Positions 7,905 through 40,978 of a stretch of DNA of 64,000 bases are shown in pieces. This DNA is from Candidatus Iainarchaeum sp. (GTDB lineage: Archaea; Iainarchaeota; Iainarchaeia; Iainarchaeales; UBA10219): assembly GCA_018304425.1 (NCBI GenBank), contig JAGVWE010000004.1:187189-251188 (forward strand), in the 5' to 3' direction. The stretch's first letter is position 1; each line of letters starts with the position of its first letter. The position numbers were made by a program, and so were the translations under genes. The notes under the pieces are model-generated. The model did not search any database and had not been told where the DNA came from. It worked only from the letters and a program-made list of their open reading frames with translations.

Positions 7905-8077
7905 TTTAAATTCTCGTCGGTTGTAAGTTAACTGTATGCACGCGCCAAGAAGGGATTTACTTTGGCACCCGTTCCACTGATTTAACCAGCGTGCGCACTG
8001 GCAAGGCCAGTTTTTCCCCCGGCTTTTTCAAAAAGGCTGCTAACTTTAGAAGGAATCTACTTTGGCTCCGGCCTTGA
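7905..8077 (+). promoter_or_regulatory. trp promoter/leader: TATA box, leaderless uORF1 (7936-7980, MHAPRRDLLWHPFH), two CTT-TGG putative +1 shift sites, hairpin/T-tract module
   Basis: TTTAAATT at 7905-7912; AGA AGG GAT TTA CTT TGG at 7948-7965; AGA AGG AAT CTA CTT TGG at 8048-8065. Confidence 0.8.
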
Positions 8078-9119
8078 ATCGCCTTTAAAGTCAGCCCTCA
8101 GCCAAGCCATTGACGGAAAGCTCTCCCCCACCGCCCTCGGAGAAGGCCTCCGCCAAATCCTCTCCGGCCAGGCCACGGACGCGCAAACCGCTTGCCTGCT
8201 CACCTGCCTCCGCCTGCAAGGCCTCGAAGCCCCCCAGCTGGTGGCAGCGGTCTTGGCCCTCCAGGAATTCATGCACGCCATCCACCCCAACGGCGACCAG
8301 CCCCTCTTGGACATCGTGGGCACGGGCGGCGACCAAGCCGGCACCTTCAACGTCTCCACGGCCTCGATGTTCGCCGCCGCAGGCGCGGGTTGCCGGGTCG
8401 CGAAACACGGCAACCGGGGTTTCACTTCCAAGACGGGCGCAGCCGACGTCCTCGAAAAACTCGGCGTCAACATCGGGCTCTCGCCAGCCGCCAGCGCGCG
8501 GTTATTGGAAGAAACCGGAGCCTGTTTCCTGTTTGCGCCCACTTTCCACCCCGCCCTGGCTTATGTAGCAGGCGTGCGGCGGGAGCTGGGCTTCCGCACG
8601 CTCTTCAACCTCCTGGGGCCCCTTGCCAACCCAGCCAACGCTTCCACGCGGCTCGTTGGCGCCAATTCCCCGGAGAACGCGCGCGTGCTCGCGAAAGCCC
8701 TGCAACGCCTGGGCCTCGCACACTGCCTCGTCGTCCACGGCTCCCAGGGCACGGCCTCCCGCGCTCCCGGCCTCGACGAGCTCTCCACGCTCGGCAAAAA
8801 CCTCTGCATCGAAGTCAAGGGCAAGGCCTCCAAGGAATTCTTCTTGCGGCCCGCGGAGTTCGGCTTCAAGCCCGCTGCACTCGCCGACCTGCAAGTCCAC
8901 TCCGTCGACGAAAGCGCGGCCGCCGTTCTGTCCGTCCTCCGCGGCGAAGCCGGCGCCAAGCGCGACGTCGTCCTCTTCAACGCCGGCGCGGCCATCCACG
9001 TCAACGGCCTCGCGGGTTCCATCGCCGAAGGCATGGCCCTTGCCCGCGGCTCCATTGACTCCGGCCAGGCCCTCGAAAAACTCGAACAACTGAAGGTGAA
9101 ATCGAATGCACTTGCTTGA
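8061..9119 (+). CDS. trpD: Anthranilate phosphoribosyltransferase; N-terminal domain lacks a canonical start codon
   Basis: DIVGTGGD..GTFNVST, AKHGNR; the N-domain ILSGQATDAQTACLLTCLRLQG lies upstream of the first in-frame GTG (8241). Confidence 0.93.
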   Translation, partial: FGSGLESPLKSALSQAIDGKLSPTALGEGLRQILSGQATDAQTACLLTCLRLQGLEAPQLVAAVLALQEFMHAIHPNGDQPLLDIVGTGGDQAGTFNVSTASMFAAAGAGCRVAKHGNRGFTSKTGAADVLEKLGVNIGLSPAASARLLEETGACFLFAPTFHPALAYVAGVRRELGFRTLFNLLGPLANPANASTRLVGANSPENARVLAKALQRLGLAHCLVVHGSQGTASRAPGLDELSTLGKNLCIEVKGKASKEFFLRPAEFGFKPAALADLQVHSVDESAAAVLSVLRGEAGAKRDVVLFNAGAAIHVNGLAGSIAEGMALARGSIDSGQALEKLEQLKVKSNALA

Positions 9120-13472: not shown

Positions 13473-14085
13473 AACAGGCAAGGGCTTGAAGGCCTTGTTG
13501 ATTGACAACTTCGACTCGTTTTCCTACAACCTGGTGGACGAGTTCCGGAAGCGCGGCGTCGAGTTGGTCGTGTACCGGAACACGGTTTCCATCGCCGAAC
13601 TCCTGGAACTCGAAAAGCGGTTCCCATTCTCGCTCGTCATCCTCTCCCCTGGCCCGGCAAGTCCAAGGGAGGCCAACAACCTGATTCCCATCCTCCAGCG
13701 GTTCGCCGGCTCCAAGGTCTTGTTCGGGGTCTGCCTGGGCCACCAAGCCATTGCCGAGGCCTTTGGGGGAACGGTTTCCAGGGTCGCGCCCGTGCACGGC
13801 AAGCCCAGCCCGGTCGAGGTCAAGGCCTCCAAGCTGTTCGAGGGCCTGCCCCCGGTTTTGCGCGTGGCCCGCTACCACTCGCTGGCCGCCACCAAGCTGC
13901 CGGCCTGCCTCCACGAGACCGCGCGCACTCCGGATGGGGTCAACATGGCGTTGGAGCACGCCACGCTGCCGGTCTACGGCGTGCAGTTCCACCCGGAAAG
14001 CATTTTGACTCCGTTGGGTGGCCGCATCATCGACCGGGTCCTGGCCATCGCAGCAGAAAGGAGGGTTCTGCCTGCGCCTTTATAA
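13465..14085 (+). CDS. trpG: Anthranilate synthase component II (glutamine amidotransferase)
   Basis: IDNFDSFSYNL, LSPGP, GVCLGHQ, QFHPES; TTG start overlapping the trpE end. Confidence 0.93.
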   Translation: MTETGKGLKALLIDNFDSFSYNLVDEFRKRGVELVVYRNTVSIAELLELEKRFPFSLVILSPGPASPREANNLIPILQRFAGSKVLFGVCLGHQAIAEAFGGTVSRVAPVHGKPSPVEVKASKLFEGLPPVLRVARYHSLAATKLPACLHETARTPDGVNMALEHATLPVYGVQFHPESILTPLGGRIIDRVLAIAAERRVLPAPL

Positions 14086-14139
14086 ATCGGCAAACCAGGG
14101 GAAACGCTTAAATAGTTCCTGTACTGGAGGTGATATAGT

Positions 14140-14235
14140 ATGGAGCAATCGTTTGTCTGCCTGAACGCTGTTGCAGTTCCTTCTTTAGTCGGCAGACTGT
14201 TTGCTTCCTTGGTTGGATTCTATTATTTTTGGTAA
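14140..14235 (+). CDS. Aromatic-operon leader peptide, 31 aa, ending FYYFW
   Basis: TTAAATA box ~14108, RBS GGAGGTGA 14126-14133; MEQSFVCLNAVAVPSLVGRLFASLVGFYYFW*. Confidence 0.8.
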   Translation: MEQSFVCLNAVAVPSLVGRLFASLVGFYYFW

Positions 14236-14237
14236 CG

Positions 14238-14330
14238 GGCTCTCCCTAAGCCTCGCCTAGGCTGCTTTCTCGGAGAGCCTTTCCTCAATCCCAGCCTCGG
14301 CTACCCTCTTCTTGGAAGCGGATTTTTTTT
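14238..14330 (+). terminator. Putative attenuator: GGCTCTCC/GGAGAGCC hairpin and T8 tract before pheA
   Basis: Stem 14238-14245/14272-14279; TTTTTTTT at 14323-14330. Confidence 0.5.
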
Positions 14331-14341
14331 GGTGATAAGAC

Positions 14342-15400
14342 ATGCAATTGGAAGTTGAACGCAGGAAAATCGACGCAATCGACGAAAAAATCGCCGCGCT
14401 CGTTTCAGAGCGCCTCCAGGCAGCCAAGCGAATCGGCGTCCTCAAAGGCGGGAACGCCGTCCTCGTGCCCGGACGCGAGCACGCCATCCTGGACGCGCTT
14501 GCTTCTAGCCATCCCACCCTTCCCCGCAAGGCCTTCGAAGGCGTCTTCCACGAGCTCTTCGCCGCCTCCCGCGCCGCCCAGAAGCCCTTGCAGGTCGCGG
14601 TGCTGGGGCCGGCAACCAGTTACTCGCACCAGGCCGCGGCCAAGCGCTTCGGCTCCCTCCCGGAATTCGCGTTCCAGTCCTCGATTCCCGAGGTCTTCCT
14701 GGCCGTCGAAAAGGGCCTGGCCGACTACGGCGTTGTTCCCATCGAGAATTCCTCGGACGGCGCGGTCAACGCGACCTTCAACATGTTCCTGAAGTCCCAT
14801 GCAGGCATCGTGGCCGAGATAAACCTGGACATCGACCATTGCCTGGCCGGCAAGGTGCCGCTCTCCGCGGTCAAGAAGGTGTTCTCGCACCCCCAGGCCC
14901 TGGCCCAGTGCGCGCACTGGCTGGCCAGCCGGTTGCCGCACGCCGAACTCCTGGAAGCGGCCTCGACTTCCGATGCCGCGGAGAAGGCCCTGGTCTACCA
15001 CAGCAGCGCGGCGGTTTGCTCGGAGTTCGCGGCCCGGCACGCGGGCCTCGACGTCCTGGCTTCTTCCATCGCCGACGAAGCCCTGAACCGCACCCGGTTT
15101 TTAGTCATCGGCAATATTGAGGCCCGGCCCTTGCCCGGTGGCAGGGACAAGACCAGCCTCATCTTCAGTGTCCCGCACAAGCCCGGCGCGCTCGTCGAAG
15201 CCTTGAAGGTCTTCCAGGCGCATGGCCTCAACATCACCAAGATTTGGAGCCGGCCCACCTTGATCCAGAAGGACGCCTACGAGTTCTTCGTGGACTTCCA
15301 GGGGTTCGTCGGCGACAAAAAAGTGGAGCAGGCACTCGACGAGCTCCGCGTACCCTGTGGTTTCGTCAAGGTGCTTGGCTCGTTCCCGGAGGAGGACTGA
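14342..15400 (+). CDS. pheA: Chorismate mutase/prephenate dehydratase (P-protein)
   Basis: R..IDAIDEKI..L..ER; VPIENS..GAV, SHPQALAQC, NRTRF, ACT domain. Confidence 0.95.
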   Translation: MQLEVERRKIDAIDEKIAALVSERLQAAKRIGVLKGGNAVLVPGREHAILDALASSHPTLPRKAFEGVFHELFAASRAAQKPLQVAVLGPATSYSHQAAAKRFGSLPEFAFQSSIPEVFLAVEKGLADYGVVPIENSSDGAVNATFNMFLKSHAGIVAEINLDIDHCLAGKVPLSAVKKVFSHPQALAQCAHWLASRLPHAELLEAASTSDAAEKALVYHSSAAVCSEFAARHAGLDVLASSIADEALNRTRFLVIGNIEARPLPGGRDKTSLIFSVPHKPGALVEALKVFQAHGLNITKIWSRPTLIQKDAYEFFVDFQGFVGDKKVEQALDELRVPCGFVKVLGSFPEED

Positions 15401-15401
15401 C

Positions 15402-16415
15402 ATGATCATCAAGCTCAAGGCAAGCGCGTCCAAGGAAGCCATCCAGCAGGTCATCGACTTCGTGCGAGCCCATGGCCTCGACGTGGATGCGTCGCTTGGA
15501 AAGGAAGTGACCCTGGTGGGCGTCATCGGCGACACGCGGCAGCTCCCCAAGCAGGCCCTGGAGTTCCTGCCGGCCGTGGAAAAACTCATCCCCATCCTCA
15601 AGGACTACAAGCTGGCCTCGCGGGAATTCCACCCGGAAAACACCGTGGTCAAGGTCAACGGCCTGAAAATCGGCGGTGAACAGTTAGTTATTATGGCCGG
15701 GCCCTGCGCCATCGAAGGCGAGGAACAACTCCTGGAAGCCGCGCACGCCGTGAAAGAAGCCGGGGCCCACGTCCTGCGTGCCTCGGCCTTCAAGCCTAGG
15801 ACGTCGCCCTACGACTTCCAGGGCATGGGTGAGGAGGGCCTCAAGCTCCTGCGCAAGGCCAAGCAAGCCACCGGGCTCGTCACGGAGACCGAGGTCCTGG
15901 ACGTGCGGGATGTAGAGCTCGTGGCCAAGTACGTGGACATCCTGCGCGTGGGCGCGCGCAACATGCAGAACTTCGACTTGCTCCGGGAAGTCGGCAAAAT
16001 CGACAAGCCCGTCATCCTCAAGAACGGCATCTCCTCGACCCTCAAGGAGTTCCTGTTGGCGGCCGAGTACATCATGGCGGAAGGCAACCGGAACGTCATC
16101 CTGTGTTCGAGGGGCATCCGGACCTTTGAGACCCTGACGCGGTTCACCTTGGACGTGAACACGATTCCCCTCTTGCACAAGGAAAGCCATTTGCCGGTCA
16201 TCGTGGACCCAAGCCATGCCGCGGGCATCCGGGAACTCGTGCAGCCGATGTCCCGTGCCGCGGTCGCGGCCGGCGCGGACGGCCTGCTCGTCGAAGTGCA
16301 TAGCCACCCGGAAAAGGCGTTGTGCGATGGCAAGCAAGCCCTGCTCCCCTCCGATTTCAGGCAATTGATGTCGGACCTGCGGAAAATTGCGCCCATCGTG
16401 GGGAGAACAATGTAG
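15402..16415 (+). CDS. aroF: DAHP synthase, type I-beta with N-terminal regulatory domain
   Basis: MAGPCAIE, AFKPRTSPYDFQG, GARNMQNFDLL, VDPSH. Confidence 0.93.
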   Translation: MIIKLKASASKEAIQQVIDFVRAHGLDVDASLGKEVTLVGVIGDTRQLPKQALEFLPAVEKLIPILKDYKLASREFHPENTVVKVNGLKIGGEQLVIMAGPCAIEGEEQLLEAAHAVKEAGAHVLRASAFKPRTSPYDFQGMGEEGLKLLRKAKQATGLVTETEVLDVRDVELVAKYVDILRVGARNMQNFDLLREVGKIDKPVILKNGISSTLKEFLLAAEYIMAEGNRNVILCSRGIRTFETLTRFTLDVNTIPLLHKESHLPVIVDPSHAAGIRELVQPMSRAAVAAGADGLLVEVHSHPEKALCDGKQALLPSDFRQLMSDLRKIAPIVGRTM

Positions 16416-16424
16416 GCGGAACCC

Positions 16425-17690
16425 ATGGACCTGAAAATCAACCCCATCCAGGAAGTCAACGCCGTGCTCGAGGCGGTTCCCTCCAAGGCGGAGACTCTAC
16501 GCGCCCTTTTCTGCGCGTCCCTAGCCGACGGCGTCTCGCGCATCCAAAAGCCTTTAATCGCCGAAGACCAGTTTCTCTGCCTCAAGGCCCTGGAAGCCCT
16601 GGGCGTGCATTCCACGGTCAAGGCCTCCGCGCTGCGCGTGCAGGGCCTGGGCGGCCGCTTCCAGGTTCCCGAGGACAAGCTCTTCTTGGGCAACTCCGGT
16701 TTCGGCCTCCGCTGCCTGACCGCTCTTTCCTGCCTCGTCTCCGAGGGAAGGGTTACCCTCGACGGCTCCAAGGAAATGCGCCGCCGTCCGGTGGCCGAGT
16801 TGCTCGCGGCCTTGAACGCGCAGGGAGTAAAGGCCGCGAGCCTGAAGGCCAACGGTTGTCCACCCGTGCAGGTTGCAGCCGGCCGGCCAGCGGGTGGCAT
16901 CCTTTCCGTTGACTGCAGCCGCAGCAGCCAGTTCCTCTCCGGCCTCCTCTTGCTGGCGCCCTTCGCCGGGCAGGACACGGAACTCGTGCCTTCCGCGAAG
17001 TTCAGTTCCCGGCCCTTCGCCGACCTCACCATCGACTTCCTGCAAAAATTCGGCGTCGCCTGTACAGCCACCGGAAAAAACCTCGTGGTTCCCGCCGGCC
17101 AGCGCTTCAAGAAAACAACACTGCGCGTGGGTGGGGACTTCTCCGGCATGAGCGCGTTGCTGGCCGCGCCCATTCTCACCGGCGGAAAAATCGTCGTCAA
17201 GGGCCTGTGCAAGGATTCCCTGCAGCCTGACCGCTTTATCCTGGACGCGCTCCGCCGGATGGGGGCACAGGTGCATATGACTACAGAAAGCGTCCGCGTG
17301 GAAGCCAACGGCACCCCTCACCCCCTGGAAGCCGACTTCAACGCCTGCCCCGACCTAGTGCCAACCGTGGCCGTCCTGGCCGCCTTTGCTTCCGGTAAAA
17401 GCCGGTTGACGGGCATTGCCCACCTCCAGTTCAAGGAATCCAACCGCCTCAACGCGGTGGCCCGCGAGCTCAAGCGCATGGGCATCACGGCCCGGAAAGG
17501 CAGCGACTCGCTTGAAATCATCGGAGGCAGGCCCCGCGGCGCGACCATCCAAACCTACAACGACCACCGCATCGCCATGGCCTTCGCCCTCGCCGGCCTG
17601 AAAGCCAAGGGCATGAAAATCCTGGGCGCCCACTGCGTCGAAAAAAGCTTTCCCCGCTTCTTCGAGGAACTGGCAAGGGTGGGAAGATGA
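16425..17690 (+). CDS. aroA: EPSP synthase
   Basis: PSK...R, LGNSG, SSQFLSGLL, KESNRL, DHRIAMAF, KSFP.FF. Confidence 0.95.
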   Translation: MDLKINPIQEVNAVLEAVPSKAETLRALFCASLADGVSRIQKPLIAEDQFLCLKALEALGVHSTVKASALRVQGLGGRFQVPEDKLFLGNSGFGLRCLTALSCLVSEGRVTLDGSKEMRRRPVAELLAALNAQGVKAASLKANGCPPVQVAAGRPAGGILSVDCSRSSQFLSGLLLLAPFAGQDTELVPSAKFSSRPFADLTIDFLQKFGVACTATGKNLVVPAGQRFKKTTLRVGGDFSGMSALLAAPILTGGKIVVKGLCKDSLQPDRFILDALRRMGAQVHMTTESVRVEANGTPHPLEADFNACPDLVPTVAVLAAFASGKSRLTGIAHLQFKESNRLNAVARELKRMGITARKGSDSLEIIGGRPRGATIQTYNDHRIAMAFALAGLKAKGMKILGAHCVEKSFPRFFEELARVGR

Positions 17691-19306
17691 ACCTCGTGTT
17701 GATTGGTTTCCGGGGAACGGGCAAGACCGCCGTCGGCAGGGAAGTCGCGAAGGCGCTCGGTTTTTCCTTTGTCGACACCGACTGCTTGGTTGCGGAGCGT
17801 GCGGGCCGCCTTATCCCGGAAATCTTCGACAAGTTCGGCGAGCCGGGCTTCCGCGAACTCGAAGCCCAGGCCATCGCCTCCCTGGCGGGCGCGGACCACT
17901 CGGTCATTGCCTGTGGCGGCGGCGCGGTCCTGAACCCGGCCAATGTCGCGGCCCTCAAGCGCAACGGCCTCCTGGTGCTCTTGACCGCGGACGCCGATGA
18001 AATCAGCCACCGCATCCAGGGCAGCCAGCGGCCGCGGCTGACTTCCCTTGATGGGCTTGCGGAAGTCAAGCACCTGCTCCGCGAACGCGCGCCCCAATAC
18101 CAGCAGGCAGCCGACCACGTTCTCGACACCACCCGGCTCTCGGTGCCGGAAGCAGTCCAAGGTGTACTTGCCCTAGCCAGGGCTCCAAACCCCGGCAAAA
18201 GCCCTTCCACTGTTTCCGTGCCTGTCCTCGTCGGCACGCGGGACGCCCACGAAATCGTCATTGGCAACAGCGCCTTGGACCGGCTTTCCGCCCTCATTTC
18301 CCAAGCTCAGCCATCGGCCGTGGCCATAGTCTCCGGCACCGGCGTCCCGAAAGCCCCTGTCGCCTGCGTGAAAAAAACCCTGGAAGCCGCGGGCGTGCGC
18401 TGCGTCCTCGCTTCCTTGGATGACCGCGAGGCCAGCAAGCGCCTCTCAACCGTGGAAAAAATTTCGTCCACCCTGCTCGAGCAAGGCCTGGACCGGCACT
18501 CGCTGTTGATAGGCGTGGGCGGCGGCCTCACCTGCGACCTTGCGGGCTTCGTCGCCGCGACCTTCATGCGCGGCATCCCCCACGCCTTGATTCCCACCAC
18601 CCTGCTGGCCATGGTGGACGCGGCCATCGGGGGAAAGACGGGAGTCAACCTCTCCCAGGCCAAGAACGCAATCGGGTGCTTCAAACAGCCCCTGGCGGTT
18701 CTCATCCGGCCCGCGTTCCTGGACACGCTGCCCCCCAGGGAACTCCTCAACGGCTTCGCGGAAGCCGTCAAGCACGGCGTCATCGCCGACCCGGAACTGC
18801 TGGCCTTCATGGACCGGCACGCGGAAAAACTCCTGGCCCTGGACGAGTCTTTACTCGCGGAATTCATTGCCCGCAACGCCCGCATCAAGGCCGGCATCGT
18901 TTCCCTGGACCCCTCCGAGCAGGGCCCACGCAAGGCCCTCAACTTCGGCCACACCCTCGGCCACGCCCTGGAAGCGGAGGCCGGCTTCAAGGGCTTGAGC
19001 CACGGCGAGGCGGTTGCCATCGGGATGGTCTTCGAGGCCCGGCTCTCCCAGCGCCTGGGCGGCCTATCCGCCGTGGAAGCGGCCTCCCTGGAGCACCTGC
19101 TGGAAAAGCTCGGCCTGTCCACCCGCCTCCCGGCCTTGGACTCCGGGAAACTCCTGGCCCGCATGGCCTTCGACAAGAAGAACGAGGCAGGAACCATCCG
19201 CTTCGCGTTGCCGCAAGCCATCGGAAGGATGATGGACCCGGACGGCTCCTACTCGGTGCCCGTGCCCGTGCACGTCCTCCGCTCCCTCTTGGAGGCCCGG
19301 CCATGA
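17687..19306 (+). CDS. aroB: Shikimate kinase / 3-dehydroquinate synthase fusion (AroK-AroB)
   Basis: LIGFRGTGKT, GE..FRELE, CGGG; GGG...DLAGF, PTTLLAMVDAAIGGKTG, LNFGHTLGHA. Confidence 0.93.
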   Translation: MNLVLIGFRGTGKTAVGREVAKALGFSFVDTDCLVAERAGRLIPEIFDKFGEPGFRELEAQAIASLAGADHSVIACGGGAVLNPANVAALKRNGLLVLLTADADEISHRIQGSQRPRLTSLDGLAEVKHLLRERAPQYQQAADHVLDTTRLSVPEAVQGVLALARAPNPGKSPSTVSVPVLVGTRDAHEIVIGNSALDRLSALISQAQPSAVAIVSGTGVPKAPVACVKKTLEAAGVRCVLASLDDREASKRLSTVEKISSTLLEQGLDRHSLLIGVGGGLTCDLAGFVAATFMRGIPHALIPTTLLAMVDAAIGGKTGVNLSQAKNAIGCFKQPLAVLIRPAFLDTLPPRELLNGFAEAVKHGVIADPELLAFMDRHAEKLLALDESLLAEFIARNARIKAGIVSLDPSEQGPRKALNFGHTLGHALEAEAGFKGLSHGEAVAIGMVFEARLSQRLGGLSAVEAASLEHLLEKLGLSTRLPALDSGKLLARMAFDKKNEAGTIRFALPQAIGRMMDPDGSYSVPVPVHVLRSLLEARP

Positions 19307-20772
19307 AAGTCGTTGTCTCCATTGGTGCCCCGTCAACGCGCGCGGCCCTTCGCCTGATTTCCAGAGCCAACCGGCTCGCGGACTTGATTGAGCTTCGCCT
19401 CGACCTGCTCCCCGCGGAATCCCTCGAAGCGCTCATTCGCGCCTGCCGGAAGCCCGTGCTCGCCACGCTCCGCTCGAAGCGGGAGGGAGGGGAATTCAAT
19501 GGCCGGCCCGCCGCGGTGGAAAGGCGATTGCACCAGGCGCTAAAACGTGGAGTGGAATTCCTCGACGTGGAATTCGCGCTCCCAGCCAAGACGCGGAAGC
19601 GTCTCATGCGGGCGGCAGCCGCGAAGAAAAAAAAGGTCATCCTCTCCAGGCATTTCCCGGCTCGCACGCTTCCCTTGGCCGAACTCATGGCCTTGCTTAA
19701 GCGGATGGCGCGCGTCAAGGGAGTCGAGCACCTCAAGATAGTCACGCGCGCTGATTCCGTCGAAGACAATGGCGTCCTCCTCTCCCTTCACCTCGCCGCC
19801 CACCGGCAAGGCGTTCCCCTCATTGCCCACGCCATGGGCCCGCTGGGAAGGGTTTCCCGGCACCTCGGTCCCTTGATTGGAGCGGACCTCGCCTTCGCCC
19901 GCCTGGAAGGCCAAACGCCCGCGGCGGACGGCCAACCCACTGTAACGGAACTCCGACGGGGAAAGCGTTCCGCCGTGTGCGCCGTCGTCGGCAAACCCAT
20001 CGGGCACAGCCTCAGCCCCGCCTTGCACAACGCGGGCTTCCACGCCCTTGGCATGGACGCGGTCTTCCTCGCGCTCGAAGCAGAGTGCTTGGCGGAAGCC
20101 GTTGGCCTCGCGCGGAAAGGAAACTTCCTGGGTTTGAGCGTTACCCTGCCCTTCAAGGCGGACGCGCTCAACCTCGCCGACCAGGCCGATGCGCTTGCCG
20201 GGAAAATCGGGGCCGCGAACACGCTGGTTTCCCGCGGCGGGAAACTGGTGGCCTTCAACACGGACTGCCCGGCAGCCGTCGAAGCACTTGAAACCGTTGC
20301 ACCGGTGCGCGGCAAAAAAGCCTTGATACTCGGCGCGGGCGGCATGGCGAAAGCCACGGCCATCGGCCTGCGCGTCCACGGCTGTGAAGTCGCTCTTGCC
20401 GCACGCCACCCGGAGAAAGCGCGCAGCTTCTGCCGCGCCCACGGCCTAGCTTTGCGCTCGCTTCGCTCGCTGCACGCGCTTACCTCGCTTGACGTGGATT
20501 TCCTCGTGAACGCCACGCCCCTCGGCATGGAGGGTGCGCCTTTCCCACTGCCCATCCCGGCCCGTTTGCTCCGTGGGCAAACCGTTCTCGACTGCGTCTA
20601 CAACCCCGTGCACACGCCCCTCCTGCGCGCGGCCGAAGCCAGGGGCTGCCGGACGGTTTCCGGCCTTGAGGTTTTTGTCCGGCAAGGCGTCCGGCAATTC
20701 CAGTTATTCACCGGCCGAAAGGCGCCCGTCAAAGCCATGCGGGCCGCGGTGGTGCGGAGGCTGAGAGCATGA
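19303..20772 (+). CDS. aroE: Type I dehydroquinate dehydratase / shikimate dehydrogenase fusion (AroD-AroE)
   Basis: ELRLD, TLRS..EGG; HSLSP.LHN, SVTLPFK, GAANT, NTD, GAGG, VNATPLGM. Confidence 0.92.
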   Translation: MKVVVSIGAPSTRAALRLISRANRLADLIELRLDLLPAESLEALIRACRKPVLATLRSKREGGEFNGRPAAVERRLHQALKRGVEFLDVEFALPAKTRKRLMRAAAAKKKKVILSRHFPARTLPLAELMALLKRMARVKGVEHLKIVTRADSVEDNGVLLSLHLAAHRQGVPLIAHAMGPLGRVSRHLGPLIGADLAFARLEGQTPAADGQPTVTELRRGKRSAVCAVVGKPIGHSLSPALHNAGFHALGMDAVFLALEAECLAEAVGLARKGNFLGLSVTLPFKADALNLADQADALAGKIGAANTLVSRGGKLVAFNTDCPAAVEALETVAPVRGKKALILGAGGMAKATAIGLRVHGCEVALAARHPEKARSFCRAHGLALRSLRSLHALTSLDVDFLVNATPLGMEGAPFPLPIPARLLRGQTVLDCVYNPVHTPLLRAAEARGCRTVSGLEVFVRQGVRQFQLFTGRKAPVKAMRAAVVRRLRA

Positions 20773-21839
20773 CGGGAAACACGTTCGGCACCCTTTTCAG
20801 AGTCACCTCGTTCGGCGAGAGCCACGGCAAGGCCATTGGCTGCATCATCGACGGCTGCCCCTCCAACCTGGCCCTGTCCGAGGCCGACCTCCAAAAGGAG
20901 CTCGACCGGCGCCGGCCCGGCCAGAGCGGCGTCACTACCGCGCGCAAGGAAAGCGACCGCGTCGAAATCCTTTCAGGGGTCTTCGAAGGAAAAACCCTGG
21001 GCACGCCGATTGCTTTGCTCATCCGCAACGAGGACGCGCGCTCCAAGGACTACGACGCGCTCAAGGAAGTCTTCCGGCCAGGCCACGCGGACTACGCGTA
21101 CCTGCAGAAATTCGGTTTGGTCGACCACCGGGGAGGCGGTCGCAGTTCGGGCCGCGAAACGGCTGCCCGCGTAGCCGCAGGCGCCGTGGCCAAGAAACTC
21201 CTTGCCCTTCAGGGCATCAGGGTTATCGCTTTCACGCGTGCCGTCGCGGGCATCGAAGCCCAGGCAACCGACCTCGCGGCCATCGAGGCCAACCCCGTGC
21301 GCTGTCCCGATCCCGCAGCAGCCAAGCGAATGGAAGAAGCCATCCTTGCAGCCAAGGCAGCCGGGGACTCCCTGGGGGGAATTGTGGAAATCCAGGTGAA
21401 GGGTTGTCCTGCCGGCCTCGGCGAACCGGTCTTTGGCAAGCTCGACGCCGAACTCGCGAAGGCCCTGATGAGCCTCCCGGCCGTCAAGGGCGTTGAAGTG
21501 GGAGCCGGTTTTGCTGCCACGCGCCTCAAGGGCAGCGAGAACAACGATTCCTACACCGCCTCGGAGGACGACCAACCCGTGCCCGCCACCAACCGGGCCG
21601 GCGGCGTCCTCGGCGGCATCAGCTCGGGCGAGGAAATCATTGCACGCATAGCCGTCAAACCGCCTTCCTCGATTGCCCTTCCCCAGAAGACCGTGGACCA
21701 CGCCGGCCGCGAAACGGAGATTGCAATCCAGGGCAGGCACGACCCCTGCCTCTGTCCCCGCGTCGTTCCCGTCGCGGAAGCCATGGCCGCGTTGGTGCTC
21801 GTGGATGCCTTGATGATGCAGAAGGCGAGACAATGGTGA
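20769..21839 (+). CDS. aroC: Chorismate synthase
   Basis: FGESHG, RPGHAD, RGGGRSSGRET, GRHDPC. Confidence 0.97.
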   Translation: MTGNTFGTLFRVTSFGESHGKAIGCIIDGCPSNLALSEADLQKELDRRRPGQSGVTTARKESDRVEILSGVFEGKTLGTPIALLIRNEDARSKDYDALKEVFRPGHADYAYLQKFGLVDHRGGGRSSGRETAARVAAGAVAKKLLALQGIRVIAFTRAVAGIEAQATDLAAIEANPVRCPDPAAAKRMEEAILAAKAAGDSLGGIVEIQVKGCPAGLGEPVFGKLDAELAKALMSLPAVKGVEVGAGFAATRLKGSENNDSYTASEDDQPVPATNRAGGVLGGISSGEEIIARIAVKPPSSIALPQKTVDHAGRETEIAIQGRHDPCLCPRVVPVAEAMAALVLVDALMMQKARQW

Positions 21840-22576
21840 AGGCAAAGTCCGGACCGGTCGTCGGCATCGTGGGCGGCAAGGGGAAGATGGGCCGCCTGCT
21901 GGCCAAGCTGTTCAAGCGCAGGGGCCTCGAAGTCAGCGTGAGCGATTTGCATACCCGTCTGACAAACGCACGGCTCGTCGAGGCCTGTGACATCGTGTTC
22001 TTTTCCCTGCCCTTCAAGCAAGCCTTGCGCGTCATCCCCCGCATCGCCCCGCTCGCCAACCCCGGCGCCTTGTTGTGCGACCTCACCTCGGTGCAGGAAA
22101 AAACCGTGTCCCTGCTCGCCCGCCACGCCCCGCGCGGGGTCGGCGTTTCAGGCGTGCACCCCATGTTCGGGCCCGATGTCCCCTCCATGAAAGGCCAGCC
22201 GGTTTTCATCTGCCCCGTGCGCGCCAACCCCTGGCTGGGTTTCCTCAAACGCATCTTCAAGGGAGCCGGGCTGCGCCTGCACGTGTTCTCCCCCCGCGAA
22301 CACGACCGACTGACCGCGGTGCTGCAGGCAGGGGTTTACTTGAACGCCCTGGCTTTTGCCGGTCGGCTGGCGGACAACGGCATTTCCCTGCGACAAGCCC
22401 GCCGCCTGGCCACCCCCAATGGCCAGCAACTGCTGGACTTGATGGAGAGCGTGCTGGGCCTGGATGCCTGGCTGGTGCAAAGCATCCTCTTCGGCAACCG
22501 GTTCGTGGAAACGCCTTGGCGGTCGGAACGCGCCTTCGCCAGGGAATTCAAGCGCTTGAAGGAGGCCCTTGCATGA
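21833..22576 (+). CDS. tyrA: Prephenate/arogenate dehydrogenase
   Basis: GIVGG.GKMG, DLTSV, HPMFGP, EHD. Confidence 0.9.
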   Translation: MVKAKSGPVVGIVGGKGKMGRLLAKLFKRRGLEVSVSDLHTRLTNARLVEACDIVFFSLPFKQALRVIPRIAPLANPGALLCDLTSVQEKTVSLLARHAPRGVGVSGVHPMFGPDVPSMKGQPVFICPVRANPWLGFLKRIFKGAGLRLHVFSPREHDRLTAVLQAGVYLNALAFAGRLADNGISLRQARRLATPNGQQLLDLMESVLGLDAWLVQSILFGNRFVETPWRSERAFAREFKRLKEALA

Positions 22577-23799
22577 CCCAATCGGTCTTCCAGCGCGCCG
22601 GCAAGAAGCTCACCGTGAAAGGCACGAGCGACCGCGTCAACCGCGTCAAGATTTCCCCCATCAAGGAGATGGGTTTGCTTGCGGAAAGCATGCAGGGCGT
22701 GGTCTCGCTGGGCCAGGGAACGCCGTCCTTCCGAACCCCTGCCCACATCGGGGCCTTCGTCGCGCAGAAAATCGCGGAAGGCGCCGTCGACAAGTACATC
22801 ATGGGACCGGGTCTGCCGGACCTGCGCCACGCGATAGCGGACAAGCTCGGCCGCGTCAACCGCATCGACGCAAACCCCGACACCGAGCTCATCGTCACGG
22901 TCGGAGCCAACCAGGCCCTGTGCATGGCCATGCTGGCCCTCGTCAACGAGGGCGAGGAAGTGCTGATGACTTCCCCCAATTACTCGCCGCACCTCGAACA
23001 GGCAGGGGTTGCCGGTGGGAACGTGAAATTCGTGCCCCTGGTCGAGGAAGAGGGCTGGCGCCTGGATGTCGAGGCCTTCGCGCAAGCGATTTCCAGGCAC
23101 ACGAAGCTGGTCGTCCTCAACACGCCCCTCAACCCCACGGGCTCGGTGCTGCCGGAAAGGGACTTGCGTGCCCTCGCCGAGGTCGTCCTCCAGACAGATG
23201 CCTTCGTGCTCACCGATGAAACGTACGAGGACTTCGTCTTCGGAAAAGAAAGGCACTTCAGCCTGGCCTCCATCCCAGCGATGCGGCCCCGCACCCTCTC
23301 GGTGTTCAGCTTCTCGAAGTCCTACGCCATGACCGGCTGGCGCTGTGGTTACGTGCACGCCGAAGAGGGGCTCATCAACCAGCTCCTAAAACTGCACGAT
23401 GCCCTGTGCATCTGTGCTCCCCTCACCGCGCAATACGCCGCCCTCGCTGCCCTCACCGGGCCTCAGGACTGCGTCAGCCACTTCCGCGGCGAAATCGCCC
23501 AGCGTGCCCGTCTCGTCGAAAAACGCATGGCCGAGCTGCCACGCTTTTCCTCCCAGCCCCTGGCCGGGGCCTACTACGCGTTCCCCAGGGTCGCGGGCCT
23601 AAGGGACTCGGTGGGCTACTGTCTGGAGCTTCTCCACGGGGCCAAGGTGGTCACGGTGCCAGGCTCGGCCTTCGGGCCCACGGGAGAAGGGCACATCCGG
23701 TTGAGCTACTGCATGGAAGAAAATGTGATTGACCAAGCCTTCGACCGCATCCAGCAATTCGAGAAAAAACAGGGACACGGGCAGCCATTGCACGGCTAA
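22573..23799 (+). CDS. Class I/II PLP aminotransferase, probably aromatic
   Basis: NTPLNPTG, DETY, SFSKSYAMTGWRCG; last gene of the aromatic operon. Confidence 0.9.
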   Translation: MTQSVFQRAGKKLTVKGTSDRVNRVKISPIKEMGLLAESMQGVVSLGQGTPSFRTPAHIGAFVAQKIAEGAVDKYIMGPGLPDLRHAIADKLGRVNRIDANPDTELIVTVGANQALCMAMLALVNEGEEVLMTSPNYSPHLEQAGVAGGNVKFVPLVEEEGWRLDVEAFAQAISRHTKLVVLNTPLNPTGSVLPERDLRALAEVVLQTDAFVLTDETYEDFVFGKERHFSLASIPAMRPRTLSVFSFSKSYAMTGWRCGYVHAEEGLINQLLKLHDALCICAPLTAQYAALAALTGPQDCVSHFRGEIAQRARLVEKRMAELPRFSSQPLAGAYYAFPRVAGLRDSVGYCLELLHGAKVVTVPGSAFGPTGEGHIRLSYCMEENVIDQAFDRIQQFEKKQGHGQPLHG

Positions 23800-39277: not shown

Positions 39278-40566
39278 TTCCGTTTCACCTCGAACCGTTT
39301 CTCCACCGACTTCCTGTGCGCGTCCAGCCCCTCTTCCCGGGCCAGGCACGCGACGGCCGGCCGCAAGGCCTCCAAACCCCTGCGCGACAGCCTTTCCACG
39401 TTCTGGAACCGCATGAACTCAAGCACGCTCAACCCGGACGAGAACCGGGCCGCGCGCCCGGTCGGCAAAACGTGGTTGGTGCCGCTCGCATAGTCTCCGG
39501 CCGCCTTGGGACTCCAAGGCCCCAGGAAAACCGTGCCCGCGTTGACGAGCCCATCCACAAACCGTTGGCCGAAGCCCCAGACCTCGGCGTGCTCGGCCGC
39601 GAAGTCGTTGGCGAACCGCAGGACCTGTGCCTCGTTTTTTGCGAGGACAATCAGCCCGTTTCGTTTCAGCGACTGCCGTGCAACTTGGCCGGTCGCCAGT
39701 TCCCCCAACTGCTGCTTTAACTCCTTTTCCACTTGCCGCGCCAGCTTCCGCGAAGTCGTGACCAGCACGCTGCGCGCGTTGGGCTCGTGCTCGGCGGAAG
39801 CCAAGAGGTCGGCGGCCATCCATTCCGGGTTCCCGCTTTTCGCCAGCACCAGCAGTTCGGTGGGCCCGGCCAGCAAGTCGATGCCGACCTCGCCGTAGAC
39901 GAGCCGCTTGGCCGCCGTGACATACGCGTTTCCCGGCCCGAAAACCTTGTCCACGCGTGGAATGCTTTCCGTGCCGTACGCCATCGCGGCAATGGCTTGC
40001 GCGCCCCCAACCTTGAAGATGCGGTCGGCTCCCGCCAGCAGGCAAGCAGCCACGATCAAGGGATTCGCTTTCCCGTCCTTCCGCGGCGGCGTGCACACGA
40101 TTTTCTCGCGCACGCCCGCCACCTGCGCGGGCACCAGGTTCATCAGCGCGGTCGATGGCAGCGGATATCGCCCGGCAGGGACATAGACCCCGACGCGCTC
40201 GATGGGCCGCACGGTCTGCCCCGCGTATATGCCGTTACCGAAGCCTTTTGCCCAGCTTTTAGGCAGGGCCGCCCGCTGGAAATCCGCGAGGTTCTTCGTC
40301 GCGCACTTCAACGCGCTCCGCTGTTCCTTTGTCAGGCCGCGCAGGGCCGCGCGTTTCTCGGCCGCGCCCACTTCCAGTTCGTTTGCCGATAGCGTGACCC
40401 GGTCGAACCGCCGCGTGAATTCGCGCAGGGCAGCGTCGCCGCGCCTGCGCACGGCCTCGAGTATTTCCCGTGCCGCTGGCTCCGCTGCGCGGTTCGCTTC
40501 CGCTTTCGGTTTCACCAACCGTTCATAGTCCGTTCGCGAAACCCCGGCCAACTCGACCCGGGTGAA
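39274..40566 (-). CDS. hisD: Histidinol dehydrogenase; probably initiated at ATG 40603 via a +1 shift, alternative TTG start 40551
   Basis: GVYVP.G, GGAQAIAAMAYGT, GPGN.YV, AGPTE, AEH, GDY..GTNHVLPT. Confidence 0.95.
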   Translation of the reverse strand, partial: FTRVELAGVSRTDYERLVKPKAEANRAAEPAAREILEAVRRRGDAALREFTRRFDRVTLSANELEVGAAEKRAALRGLTKEQRSALKCATKNLADFQRAALPKSWAKGFGNGIYAGQTVRPIERVGVYVPAGRYPLPSTALMNLVPAQVAGVREKIVCTPPRKDGKANPLIVAACLLAGADRIFKVGGAQAIAAMAYGTESIPRVDKVFGPGNAYVTAAKRLVYGEVGIDLLAGPTELLVLAKSGNPEWMAADLLASAEHEPNARSVLVTTSRKLARQVEKELKQQLGELATGQVARQSLKRNGLIVLAKNEAQVLRFANDFAAEHAEVWGFGQRFVDGLVNAGTVFLGPWSPKAAGDYASGTNHVLPTGRAARFSSGLSVLEFMRFQNVERLSRRGLEALRPAVACLAREEGLDAHRKSVEKRFEVKRK

Positions 40567-40978
40567 CTAAACCCCTTCTGTCAGTCTTGCGACTAGTCGT
40601 CATAACCCAACCCACCTCCAAGAGAAGTTGTTGGGCTACCCCCAATGATGGAGTAACCCGTGGTGAACTAACTCAACCCGTTCGGTTGAAGAAAAGAAAG
40701 GGCCGGTGCGGGGAATTGAACCCCGTTCAGAAGGTCCACAGCCTTCTATCCTAACCGATAGACCACACCAGCCATTACGCCTTTTTACAAAAGGTGTGCG
40801 AAAACGTCCCATGCGCGGCATGGGACTGCCCTCAGTATTGGCTTCGCTAAAAGAGGGACAAGCGCTGAGAATAGTTTCATAGCTAGCCAAGTCAAGTAGG
40901 GCGTTATCGCCGGCTATGAAGTAAATTCCTTCTCATAGGTTAATCGCTCACATATCTTCCGTCTGCGGAGTTTAAATA
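40523..40978 (-). promoter_or_regulatory. his leader: TATA box, three uORFs with His-codon putative +1 shift sites, RBS-sequestering hairpin, embedded tRNA-His
   Basis: TATTTAAA 40978-40971; uORF 40936-40904 MRRNLLHSRR; frame ending VHHGLLHHWG* at 40636; uORF 40603-40523 with AGA AGG GGT TTA GTT CAC. Confidence 0.78.
40701..40773 (-). tRNA. tRNA-His(GTG) with encoded G-1
   Basis: G-GCTGGTG...CACCGGC-C; GAAGG-CT-GTG-GA-CCTTC. Confidence 0.95.

Follow-up and report, generated by a model that had tools for sequence, protein, structure and literature searches.

A conserved aromatic-codon leader before the aro operon of Iainarchaeales resembles a ribosome-read amino-acid sensor

Leader-peptide attenuation belongs to the textbook biology of bacteria, and in the enterobacterial attenuators, pheL-pheA and trpL as well as the multivalent thrL and ilvL, the leader carries codons for the end products of the operon. 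The trp operon of Methanothermobacter is said to include a two-codon Met-Trp minigene. The mechanism of leader-peptide transcription attenuation is summarised in passages of PMC4007540, in which leaderless leader peptides are also predicted for Deinococcus deserti. In the accessible parts of PMC6737238, control of archaeal aromatic operons is attributed to the DNA-binding proteins TrpY (Methanothermobacter) and Tar/TK0271 (Thermococcus), which act at initiation. According to excerpts of PMC8716108, binding and termination by aCPSF1 are most efficient with two U4 tracts, and the factor has been proposed to compete with the ribosome in a Rho-like manner (excerpts of PMC13681488 and PMC13675443). 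No published archaeal leader-peptide attenuator was found in the full-text literature, the coverage of which excluded most subscription journals. The leader described here, located at the head of an aro operon in Candidatus Iainarchaeum sp., looks from its sequence like the ribosome-read amino-acid gauge so far shown only in bacteria.

The aro leader and its genomic setting

The leader lies within a stretch of 64,000 nucleotides that is referred to as the window. The surrounding genome comprises 1.48 Mb in 7 contigs, has an archaeal 16S tail (GGATCACCTCC) and encodes aCPSF1, which scores above the family cut-off. Upstream of the leader, trpD-C-B-A-E-G ends at 14085; the first gene 3' of the uORF is pheA (ATG at 14342), the product of which is a chorismate mutase-prephenate dehydratase (for an overview see Table 1). 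Contigs from runs X1 (from which this DNA may stem), X6 and X7 span the leader with zero differing letters and zero gaps.

Table 1. Positions of the leader elements and neighbouring features in the window
Feature	Position	Strand	Remark
trp leader MHAPRRDLLWHPFH	7936-8090		
BRE-like purine stretch and TATA box	14099..14115	+	putative promoter of a leaderless transcript
Perfect SD match GGAGGTGA	14126..14133	+	inside the promoter spacer
31-codon leader ORF MEQSFVCLNAVAVPSLVGRLFASLVGFYYFW	14140..14235	+	
Putative sensing run Phe-Tyr-Tyr-Phe-Trp	14218..14235	+	abuts the stop; TTC TAT TAT TTT TGG TAA
Hairpin at the stop codon	14237..14280	+	GGGCTCTCC (14237-14245) with GGAGAGCCT (14272-14280)
Alternative, mutually exclusive predicted helix	14255..14301	+	14255-14264 with 14292-14301
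U8 tract	14323..14330	+	possible archaeal termination signal here; position not conserved
pheA SD (GGTGA, 14331) and start codon	14331..14344	+	
Operon under the leader: pheA, aroF, aroA, aroK-aroB, aroD-aroE, aroC, tyrA-like, class I aminotransferase	14342..23799	+	

A preliminary description of this DNA had reported a TATA-like box, a 31-codon uORF with the aromatic codons at its end, a hairpin downstream of it and a second TTT TTT TGG TGA, all of which were recovered. The box, TTAAATA at 14108, is located 32 nt 5' of the uORF ATG and is preceded by a purine-rich, BRE-like GGGAAAC at 14099; the hairpin, the inner stem of which is formed by AGCCT and AGGCT, reaches a z of -2.3 versus shuffles, and the repeated codons lie at 14324-14335. 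A second TATA-like box (TTTATAAA) is found at 14079. The TATA peak of the ATG genes of this genome (the leaderless class) is at -32 to -28, and as the box at -32 matches this peak, the uORF is probably leaderless, judging from the spacing.

At least 5 F/Y/W within the last 8 codons occurred in only 2 of the 725 intergenic ATG-uORFs of the genome. The sole other aromatic-ended uORF, MTCFYVFWF, is located on contig C1 about 140-170 nt before 26363 with an unrelated gene downstream, and is probably a chance occurrence.

Taken as a whole, the 236 nt are not more stably folded than shuffled sequences (z -0.53); only the segment at the stop codon is. The alternative helix (rank 0.05) is predicted to form when a ribosome covers the stop; it is also seen in L108 and L113 and is not conserved across the family. 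A terminator scan of 14100-14342 reported nothing, and searches with the Rfam covariance models gave two chance-level hits only and no match to amino-acid operon leaders.

Conservation across the order and sister leaders

Prephenate dehydratase (PDT) was positive in 65 of 196 genomes of the order, and loci were fetched from 60 of the 64 genomes other than that of the window. Each locus was walked to the operon head, and the leader was sought there. Aromatic-rich uORFs before aro operons of related genomes, a search for which had been proposed in the preliminary description, precede the operon head in 28 relatives and, with L161 included, in 29 of the 60 fetched loci. L161, in which the first gene of the aro operon is aspartokinase-like, surfaced in the control set and was recognised by eye. 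Counting the window's genome, the leader-bearing loci represent 11 families, and the leader design occurred in 0 of 98 control gaps before other genes. The leader was absent from 31 of the 60 PDT loci; 4 of these are cut by contig ends, and most of the others are ilvE-pheA or lone pheA loci. In addition, three aroF loci were inspected in records with the titles Nanoarchaeota or Woesearchaeota; L023 and L029, both from other DPANN groups, possess the leader, and L028 does not. The leader is found at the operon head regardless of the first gene, be it tal, pheA, aroF, archaeal aroA' or an aspartokinase-like gene. In L106, L109, L111, L113, L117, L119, L134 and L144, pheA and aroF lie inside a transaldolase-transketolase operon, and the supply of erythrose-4-phosphate would thus be governed by the aromatic leader as well.

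Comparisons among leaders were based on a set of 31, consisting of those of the window's genome, the 28 relatives, L023 and L029, with L161 excluded. As these leaders were selected by the F/Y/W run itself and the genomes are kin, p-values from this set are overstated. The leader ORFs span 25-44 codons, with a length near 30 in most of them. Every one of the 31 runs contains F and Y, and 25 contain W; at codon positions -2 to -5, 29-30 of the 31 leaders encode aromatic residues. A TATA-like hexamer is located at -33 to -26 in 25 of the 30 homologues having upstream sequence. An SD precedes the uORF in only 1 of 31 leaders, that of the window's genome; the sequence earlier taken for the RBS of the uORF is therefore present but hardly has this role, and the TATA position at -32 fits a leaderless start. 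This SD probably lies upstream of the main start site and would be usable only via read-through from trpG or from the box at 14079. In 6 close pairs, pN/pS was 0.3-1.2 for the body and 0-0.11 for the run, and a body that drifts while the run is kept indicates that frame and run matter and the peptide does not.

Within the leaders, U-ending codons outnumber C-ending ones for Phe (TTT:TTC 74:33, versus 174:162 in the downstream genes) and Tyr (TAT:TAC 53:10, versus 96:106), the ratio for the other Y-ending codons of the leader body being 60:56. With one leader per family, the ratios are 31:10 and 23:6, respectively. At least 2 U4 tracts are present in the last 10 codons of 27 of the 31 leaders versus 15.7 expected, and, for the run at 14218-14235, the last 10 codons contain 16 U versus 10.7 expected (0/500 recodings). 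The run of the window's genome holds one U4 tract only.

In 29 of the 31 leaders, the beginning of a hairpin lies no more than 3 nt to either side of the stop codon (-3 to +3), and the stop segment has a mean z of -2.07 versus shuffles, with 17 of 31 below -2. Segments at least 30 nt upstream or at least 10 nt downstream of the stop gave mean z values of -0.5 to +0.4. According to these predictions, the hairpin of the 14237-14280 type is the conserved structural element. The stem noted earlier inside the uORF (GTCTGCC at 14155, GGCAGAC at 14191) does exist in the window, but its conservation was rejected, as the upstream segments show no signal. In alignment A1, which has 10 rows, takes its structure from one of them and contains the window's row poorly aligned, 82.7% of the cells are paired, and two-sided changes are seen at 6 of the 11 pairs; RNAalifold gave zero consensus pairs in a second alignment (A3) of 12 sequences from two other families. 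For the second helix, family-wide co-evolution was not detected (cognate -7.9 versus non-cognate -8.1 kcal/mol). Neither the codon run and the A-rich stretch beyond the hairpin nor the 3' arm of the hairpin and the RNA downstream of it paired better than swapped partners, and both pairings were dismissed. The codon run paired with the hairpin 3' arm weakly better than swapped partners did (p 0.004, from kin that are not independent).

The distance between the stop and the first gene ranges from 42 to 227 nt with frames 0, 1 and 2 all in use, by which a frameshift or fusion into the first gene was rejected. In 5 homologues, visual inspection suggested a bridging ORF with a GTG start roughly 50 nt past the stop; it is missing in 4 close ones and was also discarded. 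L105, L138 and L140 have untranslated spacers of 186-227 nt 3' of the hairpin, which are strongly purine-rich, and the region 35-70 nt past the stop is 40% A across the leader set.

The design of TATA box, uORF and stop hairpin was also found with other cognate runs. At 11 of 30 leuA loci (L214, L220-L224, L227, L229, L230, L233 and L238) it ends in a Leu/Val/Ile run; leuA was not found in the window's genome. Nine leuA leaders share a sequence-conserved alternative helix (GGCTTCTG with CAGAAGTC), which is 90% paired and shows no two-sided change. Two of 30 aspartokinase loci (L263:1424-1522 and L268:1423-1521) end in a Thr/Lys/Ile/Met run, and their hairpins take in the SD of the gene. An Arg run before argG was found at 0 of 30 loci within 1.5-kb flanks. 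The Leu/Val/Ile runs have the same hairpin and are not U-enriched (4 U4 tracts versus 7.4 expected), and the Thr/Lys runs have zero U4 tracts, so that U-tract codons cannot be the general signal.

In the trp leader of the window, the +1 frame from CTT TGG comprises 38 codons to a second RRNLLW, the +1 frame of which is TrpD; TrpD has no ATG, GTG or TTG before 8241. The 28 trp leaders of the order have a mean +1 frame length of 36 codons versus 18 in shuffled sequences (0/200 shuffles), and in 4 leaders this frame is TrpE itself. At least 2 Trp codons occur near the stop of the +1 frame in 16 of the 28 (among L171-L201, L102, L119 and L144, upstream of trpE), usually 5-101 nt before a tRNA-Trp gene, and in 12 of these 16 the tRNA gene separates the Trp run from trpE. 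By their sequence, these sister trp leaders appear to combine a frameshift gate with a downstream cognate run resembling that of the aro leader. Upstream of trpE in L194, one RRDLLW is followed in tandem by another, which lies in its +1 frame, like in the window. In the trp leaders of L203 and L127, CCC TGG replaces CTT TGG, with the +1 frame open for 29 and 48 codons. Short leaderless RRD-x-x-I-L-P ORFs precede cimA-like genes in L239, L240, L242 and L243, and MTIRRDLEKLRSN precedes the aspartokinase of the window's genome (L270, contig C1); both are probable relatives of the frameshift cassette. On the minus strand of the window, at 40523-40936, a short ORF, MRRNLLHSRR, and tRNA-His lie ahead of hisD.

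Possible modes of action

Conservation, position and cognate swap argue strongly in favor of the earlier proposal that a ribosome-read leader senses Phe, Tyr and Trp together. Since the body drifts and the run is kept, the leader is most likely a leaderless ribosome-stalling sensor, and we consider it very probable that the conserved cognate codons act in this manner. In the course of events that we infer, the transcript would start at or beside the AUG at 14140, and the ribosome would translate about 26 filler codons and then the F/Y/W run. Shortage of any of the three charged tRNAs would stall the ribosome on the run, where it would cover the U-rich codons and leave the stop-adjacent hairpin intact, and RNA polymerase would continue into pheA-aro. 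When the amino acids are plentiful, the ribosome would reach the stop, melt the hairpin foot and depart, and the naked U-rich RNA would then be cut or terminated, most likely by aCPSF1/FttA. The footprint of a ribosome extends about 10 nt past the A site; thus, the hairpin foot would be covered when the ribosome is at the stop, but not when it has stalled at least 3 codons earlier.

Provided that the sensor exists, premature termination or cleavage by aCPSF1 is slightly favored as its output, and for sensor and output taken together we regard the chances as evenly balanced. The spacers of 42-227 nt in all frames, the lack of consistent SD occlusion, the presence of aCPSF1, the U4 tracts in the run and the tRNA-Trp gene between the sister Trp run and trpE all point to an output at the transcript level. 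The Leu runs, the Thr/Lys runs and the single U4 tract of this leader speak against a general role of U tracts; slower wobble reading could be another reason for the choice of U-ending codons, and the hairpin could instead be the off structure. More tentatively, the Phe/Tyr/Trp codons might serve at once as starvation sensor and as aCPSF1/FttA U-tract without a terminator hairpin, the stalled ribosome hiding the signal and the hairpin shielding the polymerase downstream, and together with the second, frameshift-gated Trp sensor this might amount to a modular toolkit.

The ribosome sensor might also be kept but act on the first gene by way of translation initiation or mRNA decay, the stalled ribosome opening a structure that hides the SD. 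Such an output would agree with the match of the leaderless design and terminal cognate run to the mycobacterial poly-Cys sORFs (parts of 10.1101/834739) and with predicted helices that reach the SD in the short-spacer leaders L102, L111 and L119 and in two aspartokinase leaders. However, predicted SD/AUG access increases by more than 0.1 upon stalling in only 7 of 31 leaders and decreases in 3 of 31, with 0.59 versus 0.55 for the window's leader, and both the spacers of up to 227 nt and the tRNA gene interposed before trpE in 12 of 16 sister leaders are difficult to reconcile with it, making this output unlikely. A classical two-hairpin attenuator, in which an antiterminator competes with an intrinsic terminator and U tract, appears quite improbable: the mutually exclusive helix and the U8 in the window's genome, and the alternative helices in L108, L113 and the 9 leuA leaders (90% paired), would suit it, but the second helix lacks family-wide co-evolution and the leuA helix two-sided change, most leaders have no U tract after the helix, and the interval from stop to gene lacks a U4 in 6 of 31. 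The T8 before the pheA RBS that the preliminary description had listed together with the hairpin, implying a terminator, is indeed present, but it lies 43 nt from the main hairpin and 21 nt from the alternative helix, and the terminator as implied was not upheld.

A +1 slip on UUU-U at a hungry codon, comparable to that of the trp cassette and leading the ribosome into the hairpin, would be expected to select for an open +1 frame. The +1-frame TAG proposed for the slip is present at 14258-14260, TTT TGG resembles the CTT TGG of the trp leader, and UUU is over-used. The +1 frame, however, extends 14.2 codons past the stop versus 14.1 in shuffled sequences, 43% of shuffles reaching this value (the trp cassette having 36 versus 18 and 0/200), the gene is in frame 0, 1 or 2 at random, and both +1 and -1 slips as a conserved output were rejected as being at chance level; we hold the slip to be highly improbable. 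Equally little speaks for a small membrane or secreted peptide with a function of its own, or a chance U-rich ORF, a small membrane peptide having been named in advance as a finding that would contradict a sensor. F/Y/W and L/V/I runs are both hydrophobic, and the 19-residue hydropathy of the window's peptide is 1.64, but only 3 of the 31 peptides reach 1.6, the body evolves nearly neutrally and 0 of 98 control gaps contain the design. In addition, the polar Thr/Lys runs in the equivalent position before aspartokinase argue against a membrane peptide.

If the leaderless sensor acts as outlined, small-genome DPANN archaea, which are often taken as host-dependent, would regulate amino-acid synthesis by demand. 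As a portable element of 200 nt with a clear prediction, the leader could be used to test a regulatory role for aCPSF1 in Methanococcus or Thermococcus.

Comparison with described systems

Like pheL and trpL, the aro leader consists of a short ORF, presumably translated, with cognate codons near its stop, RNA structure after it and biosynthetic genes downstream, and would sense more than one amino acid; it is located at the operon head, and its codons track the pathway. Unlike pheL and trpL, it has an archaeal TATA promoter, a leaderless AUG and one conserved hairpin flush with the stop. The GC hairpin with a U tract immediately behind it that marks classical attenuators is missing as a conserved element, and there is no Rfam match. 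The leader therefore falls outside the classical terminator-type class, although it would work like a member of it.

With aCPSF1/FttA termination, as treated in parts of PMC8716108, PMC13675443 and PMC13681488, the proposed mechanism shares U4 tracts as the signal, a factor encoded in the genome and a proposed Rho-like competition with the ribosome; those parts describe termination at gene ends and do not describe a regulated use within leaders. TrpY and Tar act on the same pathway, in which any one of three amino acids would likewise have to be sensed, a requirement that is left open in the accessible text of PMC6737238. Unlike the aro leader, they are DNA-binding proteins, and the words 'attenuation' and 'leader' are absent from that text. 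The prfB-like +1 trp cassette of the same genome is likewise a leaderless uORF in which a cognate codon would be sensed, often with a Trp run at the end of the +1 frame, whereas the aro leader has neither the cassette nor a selected +1 frame.

The leaders predicted for Deinococcus deserti in passages of PMC4007540 are similar in being leaderless short ORFs at the 5' end of the transcript with a cognate run. The mycobacterial poly-Cys sORFs, as described in parts of 10.1101/834739, share the leaderless 5'-end short ORF, the cognate run and the occurrence at several operons, each with its own sensor. They differ in that SD release was tested there, whereas SD occlusion is not conserved among the aro leaders, which are archaeal and carry an aromatic run. 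Thus, the aro leader is closest in logic to pheL, trpL and thrL, and closest in layout to the mycobacterial leaderless poly-Cys sORFs.
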